IMG/VR virus record: IMGVR_UViG_2713896899_000019
Location: 1 to 19,056 of that record
Origin: a virus
Lineage: Duplodnaviria > Heunggongvirae > Uroviricota > Caudoviricetes
DNA: 19,056 bases
Reading direction: 5' to 3' (one strand)
Shown: positions 6,085 to 14,074 of the stretch, in pieces
Layout: each line of letters begins with the position of its first letter
How positions within the stretch are numbered: position 1 is the stretch's first letter
Made by a program: the position numbers and the translations under genes
Notes under the pieces: model-generated
Database searches by the model: none
The model's input: the letters and a program-made list of their open reading frames with translations, nothing else
What the model was told of the DNA's origin: nothing

Positions 6085-6501
6085 TTATGCTTCCTCCTGA
6101 TTTTGTTTATAAGCATCAGTCAATAACAACATTGGATCACAGCCAAGAACATTAGCCAGAGGGATAAGCATGCTGATGGTTGGTTCGTACTCTCCGCTTT
6201 CCCACTGGATGATGATTTCTTCATCGAGGTCGAGCAGTCTGGCGAGTTCGGCTGTTGTTAAGCCGCAGTCTTCGCGTTGGGTACGAAGACGGTTGTTGAT
6301 TGCAGAATTTTTGTTCTGTAAAAGCATTGCTGACGATAGCTTTCTGGATATGCTATTTGTCATATCCCATGCCAGTCCTGCGCATGACTCTATATCGCTA
6401 GAGAGCGTAGCATCTGGTGTTGCTTTTGCTATTAGTGTAATGAGGCTGCCGAGGTTTTTCAGTTCTTCGAGACAGTCAAGAGTTGTAGCTTTATTGATCA
6501 T
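6085..6501 (-). CDS. Two-domain protein with an unknown helical N-terminus and a C-terminal XRE-family helix-turn-helix (138 aa); first gene of the PL operon
   Basis: The C-terminal sequence (LRTQREDCGLTTAELARLLDLDEEIIIQWESGEYEPTISMLIPLANVLGCDPMLLL) is a textbook XRE HTH. The start lies about 25-30 nt downstream of the predicted PL transcription start. Confidence 0.65.
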   Translation of the reverse strand: MINKATTLDCLEELKNLGSLITLIAKATPDATLSSDIESCAGLAWDMTNSISRKLSSAMLLQNKNSAINNRLRTQREDCGLTTAELARLLDLDEEIIIQWESGEYEPTISMLIPLANVLGCDPMLLLTDAYKQNQEEA

Positions 6502-6604: not shown

Positions 6605-7261
6605 TCAGAAAATATCCCACCTGGCATCAACCACAACACCTACTATTTCGCAATCATTGTCCATTTCTATGATTGGATATTGTGGATTAAGGGGCTTTAG
6701 AAACGCCTTTCCCATTTCAGAAATATATTTTTTGAATGTTGCTTCATTGGTAGATTTTTTTCTGGCGATGACGTAACACCCTGAAAAAACTTCTTTATCT
6801 GGGTTGACAAGGATCGACATTCCTTCAGGAAATGTTATTCCTACGGGCGAAGTCATTGAGTCTCCGTGCACTTCCAGCCAGAACCCCCTCTCTCCAGCGT
6901 ATTTTACAGAATGCCTCCAATTATCCTGATCATACATGTTGTAGTCATCACCAGCAGTTGCGAATAATCCTGCCTGAACCCAGTTAATTACAGGGTAAGA
7001 GTGTGCTGTGTCTCTCTGTGGGCAGCTCTTAACATTATTTTCCCAATGCTTATCTTTTTCATCTCCGTTCTGAAGCCACTGCGGTGAACACTGCAGTGCA
7101 GCTGCGACTTTAAAAAGGGTGTCACCGTTGAAACTTTTTGTAAGGCCTTGCTCGGCTTTACTGATTGCAACTCTGGTGACCCCTGCTTTTTTAGCCAACG
7201 CATCTTGCGTTAACCCAGCTTTTTGTCGTGCGTTGATGAGGCGTTCACCTAAAGATTTCAT
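6605..7261 (-). CDS. cI: CI-type prophage repressor: N-terminal XRE HTH plus C-terminal S24/LexA-like autopeptidase (218 aa from MKSLGERL)
   Basis: The HTH is QKAGLTQDALAKKAGVTRVAISKAEQG. The C-terminal GDSM Ser motif and a downstream Lys (TFKKY) are typical of the S24 family. The gene is divergent from a cro-like gene. I prefer the ATG at 7261 (AAGGAG 8 nt upstream) over the 243-aa ORF-track start at 7336, which would run through the operators. Confidence 0.85.
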   Translation of the reverse strand: MKSLGERLINARQKAGLTQDALAKKAGVTRVAISKAEQGLTKSFNGDTLFKVAAALQCSPQWLQNGDEKDKHWENNVKSCPQRDTAHSYPVINWVQAGLFATAGDDYNMYDQDNWRHSVKYAGERGFWLEVHGDSMTSPVGITFPEGMSILVNPDKEVFSGCYVIARKKSTNEATFKKYISEMGKAFLKPLNPQYPIIEMDNDCEIVGVVVDARWDIF

Positions 7262-7284
7262 TTTTCTTCTCCTTTCATGGCTGC

Positions 7285-7356
7285 TGATACTAAAGTAACA
7301 GAATTTCTTGATACTTTGGATTCTCGCGTTTAACATTCTTGGATAACAGAGTATCC
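7285..7356 (+). promoter_or_regulatory. OR/PR (and probably PRM): rightward early promoter with three operator copies of the same family as OL
   Basis: PR has a -35 TTGATA (7308-7313), a 17-nt spacer and a -10 TAACAT (7331-7336). The 15-mers are tgatactaaagtaac at 7285-7299, tgatactttggattc at 7309-7323 (overlapping the -35), and an inverted-orientation copy at 7342-7356 (ggataacagagtatcc, with palindromic ends) over the predicted start site. Confidence 0.6.
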
Positions 7357-7372
7357 GGTGTGAGGCTAAAGA

Positions 7373-7624
7373 ATGACCCTTTATGAAATATTAAAAACTC
7401 AATTTAAGACCAATGCCGCTATTGGCCGTAGGTTCCCAAAGAAAGGAAGGCCTCGTGGTAGTCAGGGAGTTGGAAAGTGGAAAACACGGGGCGTTCCGGA
7501 GGATGTTGCCATTCTCTGCCATCTGGATCCGAACATTCCATATACACATCCAAGCTTAGCGCGCACGGGAGAGGTGAAGGGCTTGTATGTCCCAGAATTA
7601 CGTTCAGACAGAGATGCCATCTAG
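7373..7624 (+). CDS. cro: Cro-like small DNA-binding regulator (83 aa)
   Basis: First gene downstream of PR and divergent from cI, with a GAGG Shine-Dalgarno sequence upstream. The sequence pattern (AAIGRRF...SQGVGKWKTRGVPEDVAILCHL) resembles Cro/YdaS-type HTH proteins. Confidence 0.7.
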   Translation: MTLYEILKTQFKTNAAIGRRFPKKGRPRGSQGVGKWKTRGVPEDVAILCHLDPNIPYTHPSLARTGEVKGLYVPELRSDRDAI

Positions 7625-7880
7625 GTACTGCCAGGCAGACGAAGAGTGGATTCAGCAGCAGTTACAGGGGCTGCCTCCGTCACTGAGACGGAAGGTCGCC
7701 CTGAAATATGCGGAGGTATACGAAATCACTTTTGACGCTGAGCCTGTTTCATTCCGCAAGGAGAACAGAGCAAGGCACGAAGCAAACACAAGGCTCCGCT
7801 TGTTTGTGAGAAATCAGGGCAGAGCTTTACAGGGGTATACAACTCAGCCGCCCCTGGCAGGAACGCAATCGCGCTCCTGA
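7587..7880 (+). CDS. Hypothetical protein in the cII position (97 aa; alternative start at 7614)
   Basis: ORF with a good Shine-Dalgarno sequence (GGAGAGGTGAAGG) before the ATG at 7587. It overlaps the cro 3' end by 38 nt. Function is inferred only from position. Confidence 0.5.
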   Translation: MSQNYVQTEMPSRYCQADEEWIQQQLQGLPPSLRRKVALKYAEVYEITFDAEPVSFRKENRARHEANTRLRLFVRNQGRALQGYTTQPPLAGTQSRS

Positions 7881-8129
7881 TTGGTACCGGGCTTAAAGGT
7901 GTCCGGTGGCTGAATCCCAAATCTCATTGCATTTGTGTACTAGCTAAGGAGTACATGCAAAATTCAGTGAGAGGAGGGGAGGGGGAGGAGTGCTCGTGTG
8001 TTAGTGCGAAGCACTGGAACAGGCTTTTCCAACAGACGGGTACATAGGTTAGGTAGATCTCGATCTAAAGGGGGATACCTCTGAAAAAACGGCTGTACCA
8101 TAAAGCTAGTACAAAATGGATAAAAAAGT

Positions 8130-8498
8130 ATGAGTGAAGACCTGAAGCAAAATTTAATCGCTCTCCTGGAAGAGCAATTCATTCGCTCCGATGACAAAGT
8201 CGTTTTCGATTATGTGATGCAGAAAAAAATCAAGTCTCAGGGATACCATCTGCAACGCAATTTCAGCATCAGCATTAGCGGTGGTCGTAAAGGGTTTATT
8301 GATTGCCTGGTTACATCATCAGACGGCCAGCAGTGTGCCATTGAGGTCGATAAGAAGTCTCCCCGCAACCGTTCGTTGATGAAGCTGGCTCAGCTACCTG
8401 AGGGGATGTCAGGCTTTGTCCTGCTCAGGGATGGTAAGCACCCTCTTCGATATAGCGAGAACGGAATTGACGTTATTCGTGCGACGAAATTTAAGTGA
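8130..8498 (+). CDS. Small protein with a possible PD-(D/E)xK nuclease-fold motif (122 aa)
   Basis: ORF upstream of the helicase. The segment GFIDCLVTSSDGQQCAIEVDKK has the D...E-x-D-K-K spacing typical of restriction-endonuclease-like folds. This was recognised by eye only. Confidence 0.5.
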   Translation: MSEDLKQNLIALLEEQFIRSDDKVVFDYVMQKKIKSQGYHLQRNFSISISGGRKGFIDCLVTSSDGQQCAIEVDKKSPRNRSLMKLAQLPEGMSGFVLLRDGKHPLRYSENGIDVIRATKFK

Positions 8499-8559
8499 GT
8501 TGATTCGGAAAGGGGCTGGCAGCCTTTGGGGAGACCACCAGCCATGTGAGGAGGAATCC

Positions 8560-8619
8560 ATGAAAACCACATCACAAAATTATTATCTCATCACTGCGGG
8601 GACAGCACAATGCAGCTGA
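8560..8619 (+). CDS. Candidate 19-aa leader/coupling ORF (MKTTSQNYYLITAGTAQCS)
   Basis: GAGGAGG (8548-8554) sits 5 nt before the ATG at 8560. The TGA stop (8617-8619) overlaps the helicase ATG (8610) region. Confidence 0.3.
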   Translation: MKTTSQNYYLITAGTAQCS

Positions 8620-10268
8620 CAATCACGCCGAATTTTGCACAGGAGCGAGCGCTAAACATGTTGCGCCGTGACTGGAAGGCAAACGACACCTTCATGGTTT
8701 ACTCGCCAACAGGTAGCGGTAAAACGGGTCTGGCAGCCTTCATCGTTGCTGGTTTTGTCAGCCGTGGTATGCGTGTTCTGTTCTGTGTTCCGTACACCAT
8801 CCTGATTGGTCAGACGGCTAATCGGTTCGTGCAGTATGGTTTACCTGGAGATGAAATCGGTTATATCTGGGCGGATCACCCGAACTACGATCCGGACCGG
8901 AAAATTCAGATTGCCAGCGCTGACACGCTTATTCGTCGTGTTTTTCCTGAAAATATCGATCTGCTGATTATCGACGAAGCGCACCTGCGTAAAAAACGCA
9001 TCCTGAAGGATATCGAACGTCTGCGCGGCAAAGGCGTAAAGGTGATTGGCCTGTCGGGTACTCCGTTTTCTCCGTTCCTGGGCAAATACTATGACCGACT
9101 GATTAAGCCGACCACCATCGGCGAGTTAATCCAGCGTGGCGATCTGAGTAAATACGAATTTTACGCGCCAACTAAGCCGGATCTGAAAGGTGTTAAAACC
9201 ACATCTTCGCTTGAGTACGGCCGCGATTACAACGAAACACAGCTGGCTGAAATCATGTGCGGCTCTACGCTGGTGGGCGACATCGTACAGAACTGGCTGG
9301 AGAATGGTCGGGATCTACCTACCATCGCTTTCTGCGTCAACGTAGCCCACGCCAATTACCTGACAATCCAGTTTAACCTCGCAGGTGTTAACGCTGAGGT
9401 AATGACCGCAGACACTCCGGTAGATGAGCGCCAGACCATCATTCACCGCTTTGAAACTGGTGCAACGAAAATCATCGTTAGTGTGGGCGTTCTGGTGGCC
9501 GGCTTTGATAGTGACGTTCGTTGCATCATCTACGCCAGGCCAACAAAAAGCGAAATTCGCTGGTTGCAGGCACTCGGGCGTGGGCTGCGCACCGCACCGG
9601 GTAAAGAGTCCTGCCTTATCTTCGATCACAGCGGCACCGTGCACCGTTTGGGTTATCCGGATTCAATCGAGTACGACGATCTTCCCGGTAAGTCTGACGG
9701 CATGGAGGAAAGCGCGCGCCGCGCAGTTGAGGAACGGGCCGAAAAACTGCCACATGAATGCCCTCAATGCCACTACATGAAGCCAGCTGGCGTCTATGTT
9801 TGCCCTAAATGTGGACACAAGCCGCTGCGAGGTGAAGATGTTGATACTGACACTAGCCGCAAACTTAATAAGCTGGGTAAAAATCAGCATCAGTCGACGA
9901 AGACAGAGAAACAGTCCTGGTGGAGTCAGATCAAATTTTATCAGCGCCAGCGTGCTTCGCTGGGGCGTCCAGTCAGTGATGGATGGTGTGCTCACACTTT
10001 CAGGGAGAAATTCGGTGAATGGCCTGATGGGTTGAGCAGTTTCCCGATGGAAATAAGCCCAGAAGTAAGTAACTACATCAAACACAAGCTGATTCGGTTT
10101 GCCAAAGGCCGTCAGCGGACGCAGAGAACTATAGAAAAATTGCAGGCAACGATTCCTCTGTCTCAGGAACGAGGTGAGCGAAGCGAGATGCCAATAGGCA
10201 CTGAGGCTTGGCGCATCATGCAAGCAAAGCAACAACTCCAGAAAAATATAAACAGTTTGAGTCAGTAA
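8610..10268 (+). CDS. Superfamily-2 DEAD/DEAH-box helicase with a C-terminal zinc ribbon (552 aa)
   Basis: Walker A is SPTGSGKTG, motif II is IIDEAHL, motif III is SGTP and motif VI is QALGRGLR. The C-terminal CPQC...CPKC forms a zinc ribbon. Confidence 0.85.
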   Translation: MQLTITPNFAQERALNMLRRDWKANDTFMVYSPTGSGKTGLAAFIVAGFVSRGMRVLFCVPYTILIGQTANRFVQYGLPGDEIGYIWADHPNYDPDRKIQIASADTLIRRVFPENIDLLIIDEAHLRKKRILKDIERLRGKGVKVIGLSGTPFSPFLGKYYDRLIKPTTIGELIQRGDLSKYEFYAPTKPDLKGVKTTSSLEYGRDYNETQLAEIMCGSTLVGDIVQNWLENGRDLPTIAFCVNVAHANYLTIQFNLAGVNAEVMTADTPVDERQTIIHRFETGATKIIVSVGVLVAGFDSDVRCIIYARPTKSEIRWLQALGRGLRTAPGKESCLIFDHSGTVHRLGYPDSIEYDDLPGKSDGMEESARRAVEERAEKLPHECPQCHYMKPAGVYVCPKCGHKPLRGEDVDTDTSRKLNKLGKNQHQSTKTEKQSWWSQIKFYQRQRASLGRPVSDGWCAHTFREKFGEWPDGLSSFPMEISPEVSNYIKHKLIRFAKGRQRTQRTIEKLQATIPLSQERGERSEMPIGTEAWRIMQAKQQLQKNINSLSQ

Positions 10269-10269
10269 G

Positions 10270-11238
10270 ATGAAAACAGCAGCTGCAGCGAAAGGCCGCT
10301 GGCCTGAAATATTAGAGCACTTCGGCTTGCCGCCGATAACAGGAAAAAATCACTTCAAGGGTGAATGCCCGGTATGCGGTGCACGTGGCAAGTTCCGAAT
10401 TGATGACCGCGACGGTGCAGGAACGTGGATCTGTGTATGTGGTAGTGGCGATGGTATGAAACTTGTCACCCTGACACAGGCGAAGCCATTTAACGAGATT
10501 TGTACCGAAATAGACCGCCTGATCGGTAATGATTACCAACGGGTTAAAATCCCGGTAACCAGCAGCGCCACCAGCTTACGCAAACGGGTATTGAGCAAGT
10601 TTTCAAAACTGGAGGCACTGCGTGGTACATCCGGCGCAGCGTATCTTAATTCTCGTGGAATATTCAGTCTTCCTGCTGAGGCGATCCGGTTCAATGCCAG
10701 GCAGAGACACAACGGGAGTGTGTTCCAGTCTCTTTATTCACTTGCTACGGACGATAAAGGGGAGTTGTGCTATCTGCACCAGACTCTGCTTGATGGTGAT
10801 AAAAAAGCAGATATCGGTAGCAGTGCAAAGCGCCTCAAATCCCTGCAGGAAGATAACTATTTGGATCACGCTCGTTCTGTAGCTATCCGCATGTTTCCTG
10901 TTGCTAGCACTCTGGGTATCGCCGAAGGCATCGAAACAGCGCTGTCAGCGCACCAGATTTATAACGTGAACACTTGGGCAACCATTAACAGCGGCTTTAT
11001 GAAAAAGTTCCGCGTACCAGCTGGTGTTCTGCACCTGATTATTTTTGCCGACCGTGACGAGAACAGCGCCACCGGGCTGGCTGCGGCTTGCGAATGTGCT
11101 CATGCCAATCTGATGGCAAAGAATGACCTGCAGCGCGTGAGCGTGTACTGGCCGGATCACGATGATTTCAACAATATGCTCATGAACGGTGATCAGGTTC
11201 GAGAGCTGGTTTTCCATAAGAAAAAGGCGGTTGCGTAA
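10270..11238 (+). CDS. Primase-like protein: P4-alpha-type zinc-binding motif plus Toprim domain (322 aa)
   Basis: The N-terminal CPVCGARGKFRIDDRDGAGTWICVCG is a primase-helicase zinc-binding motif. The Toprim Glu (AEGIETALS) and DxD (FADRDEN) are present. The start lies 1 nt after the helicase stop. Confidence 0.8.
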   Translation: MKTAAAAKGRWPEILEHFGLPPITGKNHFKGECPVCGARGKFRIDDRDGAGTWICVCGSGDGMKLVTLTQAKPFNEICTEIDRLIGNDYQRVKIPVTSSATSLRKRVLSKFSKLEALRGTSGAAYLNSRGIFSLPAEAIRFNARQRHNGSVFQSLYSLATDDKGELCYLHQTLLDGDKKADIGSSAKRLKSLQEDNYLDHARSVAIRMFPVASTLGIAEGIETALSAHQIYNVNTWATINSGFMKKFRVPAGVLHLIIFADRDENSATGLAAACECAHANLMAKNDLQRVSVYWPDHDDFNNMLMNGDQVRELVFHKKKAVA

Positions 11239-12095
11239 TGCGTACTGATAACAACGAACATAAAGCACTATTCACCATCCCGACGGCAGCGTACAGCTCC
11301 GCCCTCGCAAACATCAAGCCCCTGCCAGAGCAACGGAGAATCACCGGGCATAAGCAGACTGATGCTTATCTTTGGGTGCTGGAGGTTATCCGTCTGAACG
11401 AACCCGCACATCTGGATGCTGCTGAGGCTGCGCTGGTGAAAATTAAAATTTCCCCAAAAGAGGCCCAGGAACGCTATTCGCGTTATCTGCTGGCGAATGG
11501 TGGTGATCCTTTCCAGATTGCTTTCGGTACCATCGGCATGGATAACCCGGCACAGGCAATCAGGATCGCCCGGGAGAATATCAAAAAAGCAACATCAGTC
11601 AGGGCTACGTTTGGTAGCTATGAAGCAGCACTCGAAGATGTGGAAGCCGAGCGAGTGATCAAGTCTTCCCAGAAATTTATCGACGATCATCTCTGGGGCT
11701 GGACTGCAGCCGAGAAGACAGCGGGCAGAATTGATGGCATCCGTATGAATGAAATTGATGATCAGCGTCGTGCATATGTTGATGGCTATCGTGATGTACT
11801 GCCAGAGCCTCATACATTGTCAGACGTAGTTCGTGAGTTTGTTTACTGGGACTGGCTCTACAGTGTTCGCCACACTGCGTCTAAAGAACAGGGCGATGAG
11901 TATGGTTACTCTGAGCATCACGAATCGGTATATGACCGCGAGCGCTACCTTGAAAAATTGCTGATGACCATCAAACCGGTGACACGGGCTGAAGCCGTGG
12001 AGGTGTGTCGTTGGTTTTTGGCAAGCGGAAAGGGCGAATATATGAAAGACAATGGCGCGGCTGTTATTCTTAATCTGGTTGGGGAGTGTGAATAA
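11238..12095 (+). CDS. Hypothetical protein (285 aa), translationally coupled to the primase and Q genes
   Basis: Long ORF with TAATG overlaps at both ends (11235-11240 and 12092-12097). No family recognised. Confidence 0.65.
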   Translation: MRTDNNEHKALFTIPTAAYSSALANIKPLPEQRRITGHKQTDAYLWVLEVIRLNEPAHLDAAEAALVKIKISPKEAQERYSRYLLANGGDPFQIAFGTIGMDNPAQAIRIARENIKKATSVRATFGSYEAALEDVEAERVIKSSQKFIDDHLWGWTAAEKTAGRIDGIRMNEIDDQRRAYVDGYRDVLPEPHTLSDVVREFVYWDWLYSVRHTASKEQGDEYGYSEHHESVYDRERYLEKLLMTIKPVTRAEAVEVCRWFLASGKGEYMKDNGAAVILNLVGECE

Positions 12096-12925
12096 TGAAG
12101 CTTGAGGCATCGCTAAAATACTTCAGTCCTCAGGGAATGTATATCGGCGACGATGTGAAAGGAACCTCTCCGGAACGTCTTACAGGCACCGATGTTATGG
12201 CGGCTATTGGTACCACCAGCAATCGTGAGCGGTTTGGCTTGGCGGCCTTCTTCGGGAAGGCCGGTATCAGCAAGACTGATGAGCAGATGGCAGTCCAAGC
12301 GCTGGCGCGTCACGCGATGGAAATTGCACCGAAGAATGTGCGTAAAGCAGCTGGTGGTGAATTTGGCTGGTGTATGCTGGTACTGGCGCAGTTTGCTTTT
12401 GCTGAGTATTCCCGATCGGCAGACACCAGCGTAACATGCCATAGTTGCAGTGGTACCGGACTAACACCCCGTAAGCAGGTCATTCGTAAGGTTTCATACC
12501 CATGGGGTAAAGCACCATATTGGGCCAGTCGCTCCCGTGCTGTTCGACCGTCAGACTGGGAGAAATGGACAGAGGTAACGGAAGTTGTACCAGTCGTTTG
12601 CGATGTATGTAAAGGGAAGGGAGTGATAAGTGCCAGGTGTCGTTGTGGTGGAAAGGGGGAGGTACTCGACCGCAAAGCTACAAGCGAGCGTGGTGCACCA
12701 GTGTTTAAAATCTGCGAACGTTGCAGCGGAAATGGATTTTCCACGGTACCGTCTACCACAGTATATAAAGTTGTACTGAAGCGGATACCCGAGCTACATG
12801 TCAGGACATGGACGCGTAATTGGAAGCCGTTTCTTGATTCTCTGGTTGACATTTGCCACCAGGAAGAGCGTAAGGCCGATATTGCTTTTCAGAATGTGAC
12901 AAGTTTTGGTGATGATGTGAACTAA
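12095..12925 (+). CDS. Q: Late-gene antiterminator Q, Qin-prophage (QuuQ/YdfT)-like type with a DnaJ-like zinc-finger region (276 aa)
   Basis: Last gene before the late promoter and lysis cassette. The N-terminal region resembles my recollection of E. coli QuuQ. There are four CxxCxGxG-type repeats: CHSCSGTG, CDVCKGKG, CRCGGKG and CERCSGNG. Confidence 0.7.
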   Translation: MKLEASLKYFSPQGMYIGDDVKGTSPERLTGTDVMAAIGTTSNRERFGLAAFFGKAGISKTDEQMAVQALARHAMEIAPKNVRKAAGGEFGWCMLVLAQFAFAEYSRSADTSVTCHSCSGTGLTPRKQVIRKVSYPWGKAPYWASRSRAVRPSDWEKWTEVTEVVPVVCDVCKGKGVISARCRCGGKGEVLDRKATSERGAPVFKICERCSGNGFSTVPSTTVYKVVLKRIPELHVRTWTRNWKPFLDSLVDICHQEERKADIAFQNVTSFGDDVN

Positions 12926-13018
12926 GCTTAGGGTTTTTGCGACATTACACTTGATTTTGTCCGAATCTGTCATGTATGCTTTTAAGCATGTGGAATAATG
13001 CGTAAATGATTTTGATAG

Positions 13019-13040
13019 AAGCCCCTTTCGGGGCTTTTAT
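13019..13040. terminator. GC-rich hairpin terminator shared by the convergent Q gene and the orphan gene
   Basis: The stem pairs aagcccc (13019-13025) with ggggctt (13030-13036) around a tttc loop, followed by TTTTAT on the plus strand and flanked by an A-run on the other side. The stop codon of the minus-strand gene is at 13040-13042. Confidence 0.65.
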
Positions 13041-13972
13041 CATTTCAGCCCTTTTAAAAAGCGTTCGAAATTATGGAATTCAAGTTCATCCGCTGTCGAT
13101 GAGTATTTTATTTTGTTTGCGATGGGACGCAGATTTTTTTTAGTTAGGAATTTACTGGCTTCATGTTTCAGTTTTTTTAATCGCTTGATTCGTTCTTCGA
13201 TTGAACTGGCAATTTTGGCAACATTAGAAATTTCTGGGCTTGGGGCTGTTTGTAGATCAATACACTGAATTTTTTTTAGATCTTCTTTGAGCGCAACAAA
13301 AAAATCACGAAGATTGTTTTCTGGTAAAAGAACATGACTAAATGATACTTTTCCTATGTAGAATTCACTTATTGCCTCTCCAGACTCGCGCATGTGTTCA
13401 TTCATTGCGAACAGAATTGTTTTGGTATTCTTATCAGTTTCCACTTCAGAAAGGGTTACAAGGCCTGTCTGGCTCTTGGTCAAAAAACGAATTTCTGTAG
13501 CACCAAGTCTTCCGGAGTAATTGGAATTTTTACTATTTTCGATGGTAGAAGATAGATAATCTATTGTGGGTTTGATATTTCGTATCGTTTCAATATTTTT
13601 TTGCCACTCTTCACATTTACTTTTTGCGGTGCTAATAATTTCCCGATTGGTTTCGAGTTGCATAAATTTATTGAAACTAAGAACGTTTTCACCAAATTCC
13701 ACACCAAATTCGTTTTTACCACATTTATTTCCGATGTTGGTTTCAATGCCACTAGATGTTTTTACAATATAACCCATTTGATGTGGTTGGTTGCAACCAG
13801 TTAGACCACAGTGGATTTCTTCTTTAAATTTGTAGTAACCAATTATCTCCTCAAGTTGTTGAACTCCTTTGTCTATAGTGGTGACAAAGTTTGGTCTGGA
13901 TATAATTTCCTCCCAGTTTTCAAGTTTCTCGATGCCGTTTTCAGTTCTGAGAAAAATCATGAATCGCTCCAT
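13040..13972 (-). CDS. Orphan 310-aa protein of unknown function (alternative start at 13960, giving 306 aa); candidate moron/defence gene
   Basis: This is the only long minus-strand ORF in the rightward half of the window. It is markedly AT-rich: spot counts of 60-nt lines give about one third G+C, against about one half in Q. GGAG lies 6 nt before the second ATG (13960). A terminator hairpin sits immediately 3' of the gene. I recognise no family. Confidence 0.75.
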   Translation of the reverse strand: MERFMIFLRTENGIEKLENWEEIISRPNFVTTIDKGVQQLEEIIGYYKFKEEIHCGLTGCNQPHQMGYIVKTSSGIETNIGNKCGKNEFGVEFGENVLSFNKFMQLETNREIISTAKSKCEEWQKNIETIRNIKPTIDYLSSTIENSKNSNYSGRLGATEIRFLTKSQTGLVTLSEVETDKNTKTILFAMNEHMRESGEAISEFYIGKVSFSHVLLPENNLRDFFVALKEDLKKIQCIDLQTAPSPEISNVAKIASSIEERIKRLKKLKHEASKFLTKKNLRPIANKIKYSSTADELEFHNFERFLKGLK

Positions 13973-14074
13973 TTGAAAGTGGACCGTTTATTTTATCGGC
14001 ATAAAAATGAGAACACCACAAGTTATTTTATTACCGAATACTTGGTAAAGATGGGTAACTTCGCCACACAGCTT

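Follow-up and report, generated by a model that had tools for sequence, protein, structure and literature searches.

How does a lambdoid prophage replicate its DNA when the lambda-type O and P genes are missing from its early-right operon? This question is raised by a 19,056-nucleotide (nt) stretch of virus DNA (IMG/VR record IMGVR_UViG_2713896899_000019; the whole stretch is called the window here), in which genes for a protein of 122 amino acids (p122), a DEAH helicase of superfamily 2 (SF2), a Toprim primase and a protein of 285 amino acids (p285) run into the gene for antiterminator Q. By megablast, this region is 99.1% identical throughout to Escherichia Shiga toxin (Stx) phage phi467 (LN997803) and ∼85% identical to Salmonella prophage Fels-1 (NC_010391). 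It represents the replication section of an early-right operon, in a lambdoid prophage that resembles phi467 and Fels-1, and belongs to the Eru1 family. We compared the window with 35 related loci (36 modules in total), which were drawn from phage records, from one genome per species in GTDB and from E. coli genomes. The comparison indicates that the region is, very probably, a helicase-primase replication module that replaces O and P. In the reading that we favor, at a probability of roughly 0.6, its working unit would consist of a small upstream protein (p97), a conserved non-coding element, the helicase with its short upstream open reading frame (ORF), and the primase.

The module was found in 104 of 5,426 complete E. 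coli genomes (∼2%), in 92 of them at ≥80% coverage, and also in many other Enterobacterales. The amount of Shiga toxin produced depends on replication of the phage DNA; Eru regions have been linked to unstable lysogeny and to highly virulent enterohemorrhagic E. coli (PMC8044961).

A constant helicase-primase pair in the replication slot

The absence of O/P and DnaB/DnaC genes, which the initial annotation had stated without database searches, was borne out: none of the ORFs scanned from integrase to terminase matched the Phage_rep_O, lambda P or DnaB/DnaC families in Pfam, PHROG or NCBIfam. The four ORFs, their motifs and the 1-nt junctions leading into Q were likewise as described there. Helicase and primase are separated by a 1-nt gap, and 1-nt overlaps (ATGA/TAATG) join the primase to p285 and p285 to Q. 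The helicase and the primase were present and adjacent in all 36 modules.

The description of the first enzyme as a DEAH SF2 helicase with a zinc ribbon agrees with Pfam, PHROG and motif assignments. The helicase matched ResIII (2.4e-15), Helicase_C (1.8e-10) and also DEAD in Pfam, all above cut-offs, as well as PHROG 16 'DNA helicase' (3e-104). The sequences GSGKT (residues 35 to 39), DEAH (122 to 125), SGT and QALGRGLR (320 to 327) correspond to SF2 motifs I, II, III and VI, and a zinc ribbon, CPQC...CPKC, lies toward the C terminus at residues 384 to 401. RadD was the top NCBIfam match, at 94.6 bits and thus below the equivalog cut-off of 720 (NF053632), and it was also the top PDB sequence match (6jde, 3.4e-20), which covers the second RecA domain only. 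By these profile comparisons, the helicase is a member of a phage-specific family (PHROG 16) that is distantly RadD-like, and no RadD orthologue. Its gene is preceded by a 19-codon ORF whose stop codon overlaps the helicase ATG (ATGCAGCTGA), and the leader at 8499 to 8609 is kept even in loci that lack p122. The overlap and the conserved leader together suggest that this ORF is translationally coupled to the helicase.

The second enzyme, described initially as a protein with a P4-alpha-like zinc motif and a Toprim domain, matched Zn_Ribbon_Prim (3.7e-14; 53.2 bits, cut-off 23) and Toprim_3 (1.8e-14; 54.4 bits, cut-off 27.2) in Pfam and also carries DUF7146 (Pfam, 3.3e-13). Its match to PHROG 510 'DNA primase' (3e-130) aligns with profile positions 16 to 362 of 667 only. 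The motifs CPVC...CVC, EGIET and DRD (E..E and DxD) are present. The polypeptide stops at residue 322, after Toprim, with neither a superfamily 3 (SF3) helicase nor an origin-binding part, and on its own it gave no match to PDB sequences.

In Yersinia phage YP3, which was isolated from waste water, only p97, the helicase and the primase lie between CI and Q. No replication genes other than a p97-like gene, the helicase and the primase can be recognized in the complete genomes of YP3 and of a 37-kb Klebsiella phage that was entered in the database as a plasmid. Several 'plasmid' records of 37 to 42 kb from Klebsiella, Enterobacter and Morganella (e.g., NZ_CP076549.1) are complete phage genomes, from integrase to tail fibers, with the module; circular phage DNA was probably taken for a plasmid in their assembly.

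We also weighed whether p122 and the SF2 helicase could instead be prophage cargo that works as a pair in defence or anti-defence, which the initial annotation had already rated as less likely. Nuclease-helicase pairs are frequent in defence systems, and the helicase gave weak PADLOC matches to PbeA, type IV restriction enzymes and DpdF; however, these reflect the generic SF2 core only, and p97, p122, the primase and Q matched nothing in PADLOC-DB 2.0. The helicase is moreover constantly paired with the primase, not with p122; a p122-like domain also accompanies O-type initiators, one of them encoded directly before a gene annotated 'DNA helicase'; and in complete phage genomes devoid of other replication genes, these genes fill the replication slot. 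A defence role is thus extremely unlikely.

Table 1. Features of the early-right region in the window and of its surroundings
Feature	Position	Strand	Size	Remarks
Helix-turn-helix (HTH) protein	6085-6501	-	138 aa	Directly left of repressor; PHROG 4836 'CII-like regulator', 2.9e-40
S24/HTH repressor	6605-7336	-		Upstream of p97
ORF at cro position			83 aa	Upstream of module
p97	7587-7880	+	97 aa	
Non-coding element	7881-8129	+	∼250 nt	Between p97 and p122
Hairpin 1	7885-7908			Invariant loop TTAAAGGT
TGTAC-N10-GTACA palindromes	7936-7955 and 8094-8113			Only two in window
Purine/G-run	7969-7990			Paired G-runs
Hairpin 2	8003-8015			AGTGC-GAA-GCACT; invariant GAA loop
Invariant blocks				CTGGAACAG..TTTTCCAACAG, within element
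GATC block	8053-8066			TAGATCTCGATCTA with two GATC sites; invariant block GGTTAGGTAGATC and second GATC
A-rich tail				End feature of element
p122	8130-8498	+	122 aa	
Upstream ORF	8560-8619	+	19 codons	MKTTSQNYYLITAGTAQCS; strong Shine-Dalgarno sequence GAGGAGGA
SF2 DEAH helicase	8610-10268	+	552 aa	
Toprim primase	10270-11238	+	322 aa	
p285	11238-12095	+	285 aa	
Antiterminator Q	12095-12925	+	276 aa	Pfam Antiterm 1.5e-51, PHROG 127; right-hand limit of early operon
ORF in low-GC island	13040-13972	-	310 aa	PHROG 7003

Optional genes: p122 and p285

The four genes at 8130 to 12095 had initially been treated as one unit headed by p122, with p122, p285 and p97 as candidates for the initiator. 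Synteny did not support such a unit: p122 was found in 9 of the 36 modules and p285 in ∼13 (11 of the first 32 loci and both E. coli loci examined), against 36 of 36 for the helicase and primase. Since p122 and p285 are so often absent, neither is a good candidate for an essential initiator, and of the three proposed proteins it is p97 that travels with the helicase and primase.

The slot of p122 holds p122 in 9 modules and a gene of the NUMOD4/HNH homing-endonuclease type in 5, and in ∼20 no gene was called; in one Vibrio phage it holds a 133-amino-acid 'replication protein' with an annotated winged-helix InterPro domain. Among complete E. coli genomes, p122 occurs in 38, compared with ∼85 to 106 that carry this helicase subtype. 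In one E. coli prophage without p122 (L037), the helicase and the primase share 96% and 100% protein identity with their window counterparts. The NUMOD4/HNH-type gene occupies the exact p122 slot in loci L022, L023, L027, L032 and L038; in the last of these, E. coli LH50-c, it abuts the helicase (L038:2012-2644).

The AlphaFold2 (AF2) model of p285 is all-helical, with 15 helices, a predicted local distance difference test score (pLDDT) of 68.7 and a predicted template modeling score (pTM) of 0.47, and its fold could not be assigned. The protein belongs to PHROG 6204 and carries the NCBI name 'helix-turn-helix domain-containing'; it had no match in Pfam (also at E ≤ 10), NCBIfam or PDB sequences (profile search, noise only), and a single marginal one in PADLOC (1.5e-3 over 46 residues). 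A group of Klebsiella phages has only the C-terminal half of p285, standing alone (37% identity, 158 amino acids), and the gene is absent from YP3 and from Klebsiella phage ST16-OXA48phi5.3. At its position Stx phage TL-2011c has NinB/NinG/NinH, and in LH50-c a RusA pseudogene follows p285. By its position and distribution, p285 is best read as an optional gene of a nin-type slot between primase and Q rather than as a replication factor.

It is true that the four genes are contiguous on one strand, that the last three have 1-nt junctions, that a p122-like domain fused to the origin-binding N-terminal domain of O-type initiators (see below) provides a link to initiation, and that NCBI calls p285 helix-turn-helix containing; yet a single four-gene unit in which p122 or p285 is the missing initiator is hard to reconcile with 27 modules lacking p122 and ∼23 lacking p285. 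Near-identical E. coli modules do without p122, YP3 does without both and ST16-OXA48phi5.3 without p285, while p285 has an unassignable fold and stands in the slot of the nin genes of TL-2011c. We therefore regard this arrangement as improbable, and both proteins are most likely dispensable, as judged from the gene content of the related modules. Two of the three earlier initiator candidates are removed by this comparison, and the search for origin and initiator narrows to one small protein, p97, and one 250-nt DNA stretch.

A predicted nuclease, p122, and the possible recurrence of its domain beside replication origins

The PD-(D/E)xK-like motif noted initially in p122, FIDCLV...AIEVDKK with D58, E72 and D74, is present, and structure prediction agrees with it. 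The AF2 model (25 homologues; pLDDT 86.8, pTM 0.83) has an alpha-beta-beta-beta-alpha-beta core formed by helix 26-36, strands 40-49, 53-62 and 68-74, helix 80-87 and strand 93-99, and its matches in BFVD are named PD-(D/E)xK nucleases. By this model p122 has a restriction-endonuclease-like PD-(D/E)xK fold. No Pfam match was found at E ≤ 10, and a profile search of PDB sequences returned noise only. The D58/E72/D74 triad is kept in homologues down to 40% identity, bar two representatives; the signature is D...ExD with Asp for the canonical Lys, K75 and K76 vary, and K85 is invariant. p122 is probably a metal-dependent nuclease. The two representatives have Gly58 (codon at window positions 8301 to 8303); they are 96% identical and stand for clusters of 99 and 8 sequences.

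A profile search of 1.84 billion representative proteins recovered the p122 domain in two forms: stand-alone, in proteins of ∼105 to 140 amino acids, and embedded, at residues ∼155 to 290 of proteins of 330 to 494 amino acids. Several of the longer proteins have an N-terminal Phage_rep_O domain (6e-37, 1e-32), and another has a C terminus of the phage replication-protein type (Phg_2220_C). O-type initiators with such an internal domain include P0284, P0286 and P0280. One embedded copy lies in 'replication protein O' of Providencia phage PSTCR7lys (L041:2501-3673), whose N terminus is 54% identical to lambda O and whose C terminus resembles P22 gene 18; ordinary O proteins align with both ends of the fused O proteins and leave the middle unmatched. 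The PSTCR7lys O gene contains four iterons at codons 115 to 145, and its p122-like domain begins at about codon 165, ∼60 nt downstream of the iterons. The gene that follows is annotated 'DNA helicase' (456 amino acids). Compared with p122, the O-fused domains are 40% identical and keep the triad; they are internal insertions, whereas the window has a separate gene.

With one copy near the candidate origin described below and another inside an O gene, the p122 domain would recur immediately to the right of replication origins, irrespective of the type of helicase employed. By this placement it would be either an accessory nuclease acting at origins or a selfish nuclease that sits beside conserved origin DNA, and two observations pull in opposite directions. 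On the one hand, p122 is 89, 80, 57 and 40% identical where the helicase is 83, 73, 67 and 67% identical; this roughly parallel divergence favors an old association with repeated loss. On the other hand, the use of the same slot by NUMOD4 genes favors the selfish reading.

In its strong form, the selfish reading makes p122 a free-standing homing-type endonuclease beside a conserved target, with no role in replication, and the copies within O genes products of the same invasion. It would explain why p122 is sporadically present at one and the same intergenic site, even between modules sharing ≥95% identity, why homing-endonuclease genes occupy the identical slot in five loci, and why the middle of the fused O proteins has no counterpart in ordinary ones; a nuclease fold with a conserved acidic triad and the loss of D58 in two cluster representatives fit it as well. 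However, the parallel divergence fits old vertical association and repeated loss rather than recent homing, the 122 residues contain no recognizable DNA-targeting extension, and the GTAC palindromes of the element, which are the only obvious target, are kept equally with and without p122. We consider this form somewhat unlikely. On either reading, the distribution points to p122 as an optional cassette alongside the candidate origin and not as the initiator.

p97 and a conserved non-coding element accompany the pair

Of 32 loci, 30 carry p97 upstream of the helicase. The other two have ≤976 nt of upstream sequence; p97 is thus present in every locus with enough upstream sequence to judge. It is a small basic protein (PHROG 852) with homologues in 199 phage records, which include 76 from Vibrio phages, and has a conserved, arginine-rich motif, EPVSFRKxNRARxxANTRLR. 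No Pfam or PDB match was found (PDB profile search, noise only). Across loci of this subtype p97 is 62 to 75% identical, compared with 26 to 51% or divergence beyond detection for the repressors. The homologue in TL-2011c (53% identity; L033:2175-2456) is unannotated, and p97 is also unannotated in many records of Stx2a-converting phages. The p97 gene of YP3 begins only 48 nt away from the divergently oriented CI gene, and the annotation shows no cro-like ORF (L003:3086-4135); either a small gene or start codon has been mis-annotated there, or the rightward operon of this phage begins with p97.

Between p97 and p122 lies a conserved non-coding element that the initial annotation had overlooked (Table 1). 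It was detected by nhmmer in 23 related loci and in alignments is at least as conserved as the flanking genes. It is conserved from Escherichia to Yersinia and Serratia, and the central core can still be recognized in Providencia and Pectobacterium. In hairpin 1, which is present in two tandem copies in many loci, 88% of alignment cells are paired and compensatory changes affect 6 of 7 pairs, and none of 500 shuffles equaled it. Hairpin 2 occurs in three covarying stem versions across loci. The G-U pairs of the stems are workable on the + (transcribed-sense) strand only, and relative to shuffled sequences folding of the + strand has z = -3.8 versus -2.46 for the - strand. GTAC occurs 6 times in 229 nt of the element versus 3.1 times per kb in the window, and GTAY-N10-GTAC is found, within the window, in the element only.

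The locus of E. coli LH50-c helps to define which part of the element may matter. Its p97, helicase and primase are 99%, 94% and 100% identical to those of the window, and its GTAC palindromes are replaced by TTTAGACGTC-type repeats. Since the proteins are kept and the palindromes swapped, only the central core of the element is a candidate essential site. The TTTAGACGTC-type repeats replace the palindromes in L032 and L038 (LH50-c), while L022, L023 and L027 have variant forms only.

From these comparisons the core of the module appears, on balance, to be p97, the element, the helicase and the primase. That the element at 7881 to 8129 is the replication origin is a candidate assignment, which we put forward tentatively and at somewhat less than even odds.

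The strongest competing account of the same data is that the element acts at the RNA level, in antitermination, processing or translational control, with p97 as an N- or CII-like partner and the origin elsewhere, e.g., in the helicase or primase gene; the lambda origin is itself inside a gene. Two hairpins with invariant loops, compensatory stems and G-U pairs restricted to the + strand, the better-than-shuffled folding of that strand, the tandem double TTAAAGGT hairpin of many loci and the arginine-rich conserved helix of a protein encoded immediately upstream would all be expected of such a regulator. Yet the element matched no Rfam family at gathering or relaxed thresholds, a conserved pair of GATC sites and strand-asymmetric G-runs would be expected of a DNA-level element, and p97 stays 62 to 75% identical while repressors diverge, which is not how a regulator tied to immunity would behave. 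Comparison by hhalign finds no relation of p97 to CII, and the leftward operon lacks the second hairpin copy that a nut-type system needs. Hairpin 1 (TTAAAGGT) was rejected as a nut site on the same ground. We consider an RNA-level role of the element possible but rather unlikely.

A working model of initiation and the points that weigh against it

In the model that we favor, cleavage of the repressor would allow rightward transcription through p97 and the element, and helicase and primase would be made in fixed proportion. The two enzymes would act as a pair to open and prime the phage DNA for the host polymerase. Initiation would take place at the conserved element, which would be single-stranded at that point (e.g., within an R-loop produced by transcription), and p97 would be the best candidate for the specificity factor. 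The single-stranded use of the element is suggested by the strand-specific, covarying hairpins and the G-runs, and we infer complex formation and stoichiometric expression of helicase and primase from the 1-nt junctions and the upstream ORF.

A more detailed version of this model combines two proposals. In the first, the element would be a transcription-activated single-stranded origin, with + strand hairpins and a G-rich R-loop, served by a non-ring SF2 helicase and a Toprim primase, with p97 providing specificity. In the second, the p122-type PD-(D/E)xK domain would be an origin-processing nuclease module common to this replicon type and to lambda O-type initiators. We consider it quite unlikely that the two hold together. 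We know of no description of such an initiation scheme for lambdoid or Stx phages; the helicase-primase of herpesviruses and the R-loop origins of T4 or ColE1 are loose parallels.

Several observations weigh against the favored model. No DnaA box was found in the element, a repeat scan of it gave no classical direct iterons, and the covariation of the hairpins would be just as compatible with an RNA regulatory element. The LH50-c repeats argue against the GTAC palindromes as specificity sites of p97, helicase or primase. p97 occupies the place of lambda cII and is named 'CII transcriptional activator' in two phage records; its identity with CII was rejected on an hhalign probability of 0.1% and the lack of a Pfam CII match. 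Host DnaB may still be needed, since SF2 helicases do not belong to the classical ring-shaped replicative type. With regard to p122, the prophage loci without it could be defective, but YP3 was isolated as a phage. Moreover, in comparisons of the same genomes p122 is conserved as well as or better than the helicase (89% vs 83% to Fels-1; 80 to 83% vs 73% to the Klebsiella phages). Where present, it is under selection, and it may contribute to replication. Literature searches found no functional work on the replication of Eru1 phages or Fels-1.

Genes and features around the module

Of the genes to the left of the module (Table 1), the 138-amino-acid HTH protein may fill the regulatory role otherwise guessed for p97. 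Cumulative GC skew turns near the immunity region, where the direction of transcription switches, and was not used as evidence for an origin. On the right, an island of low GC content (35 to 37%) at window positions 13000 to 14000 separates Q from the lysis genes; phi467 has stxAB there. The 310-amino-acid ORF of this island, on the reverse strand, had no match in Pfam or PADLOC and looks like a cargo (moron) gene.

Comparison with known replication systems

The general type of the module is already known. Stx phages that lack O and P and carry a DEAH helicase and a Toprim protein have been described as Eru1 (Llarena et al. 2021, PMC8044961), with TL-2011c and the phages of the O104:H4 outbreak as examples, and a later survey has lengthened the Eru list to Eru13 (PMC8951638). 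This agrees with the initial proposal of a helicase-primase module in place of O/P. In TL-2011c, as in the window, the region lies between a LexA-type CI repressor and Q, lacks O/P and has the gene for a Toprim protein (∼322 amino acids) directly behind that for a DEAH SF2 helicase. By tblastn, the window helicase is 66.7% identical to Eru1A over 504 amino acids and the primase 57.2% identical to Eru1B over 320, in the same gene order. TL-2011c also has, in the order of the window, a p97 homologue, a partial element and a p122 homologue, gp29 (40%). The third gene differs: Eru1C of TL-2011c is a DUF1367/NinB gene, whereas the window has p285, which is unlike TL-2011c gp32. The role of Eru1 in replication was assigned by position only and no origin or initiator was named (PMC8044961), in keeping with the initial view that the initiator had still to be found. 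Neither p97 nor gp29 is mentioned in that paper (PMC8044961), and the Eru1 description omits a conserved gene (p97) and a conserved non-coding element.

The published definition of Eru1 requires BLASTn identity of >80% and coverage of >80% to eru1A-C of TL-2011c (PMC8044961). When window positions 7300 to 12950 were searched against phages by megablast, the replication genes drew no match to a record of the TL-2011c type, and Eru1-type E. coli helicase genes have only 60 to 80% nucleotide identity to the window helicase gene. By these sequence comparisons, the module belongs to the same replicon family as Eru1 and falls outside the published definition.

The closest relatives, phi467 and Fels-1, have the identical order p97, p122, helicase, primase, p285 and Q. 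The match to the phi467 module begins at window position 7575, and the immunity region upstream of p97 differs; the window repressor had no tblastn match in phi467. Downstream of Q, phi467 carries stxAB where the window has the low-GC island with its reverse-strand ORF. The module proteins of phi467 and Fels-1 are annotated as putative or hypothetical, and the phi467 helicase is mislabeled 'type I restriction enzyme EcoKI subunit R'. While the module type was thus known from Eru1 and Fels-1, the constant partnership with p97 and the structured element, the p122 domain within O-type initiators and the homing-endonuclease-type genes in the p122 slot of five loci are new.

The single components have more distant relatives outside this phage family. 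E. coli RadD (YejH) and other zinc-ribbon SF2 helicases have two RecA-like domains followed by a zinc ribbon, as does the window helicase. p122 shares the alpha-beta-beta-beta-alpha-beta core with PD-(D/E)xK nucleases of the BamHI/BglII and Bax1/Hjc types, and its D...ExD signature resembles the BamHI triad, which is D...ExE. The window primase has the N-terminal zinc ribbon and Toprim (Zn_Ribbon_Prim, Toprim_3) in common with P4 alpha, and the Fels-1 record cites a likeness of its own primase to that of P4. P4 alpha, however, continues past Toprim into an SF3 helicase and an origin-binding C terminus. Unlike P4 alpha, the window module would unwind DNA with a separate SF2 enzyme.

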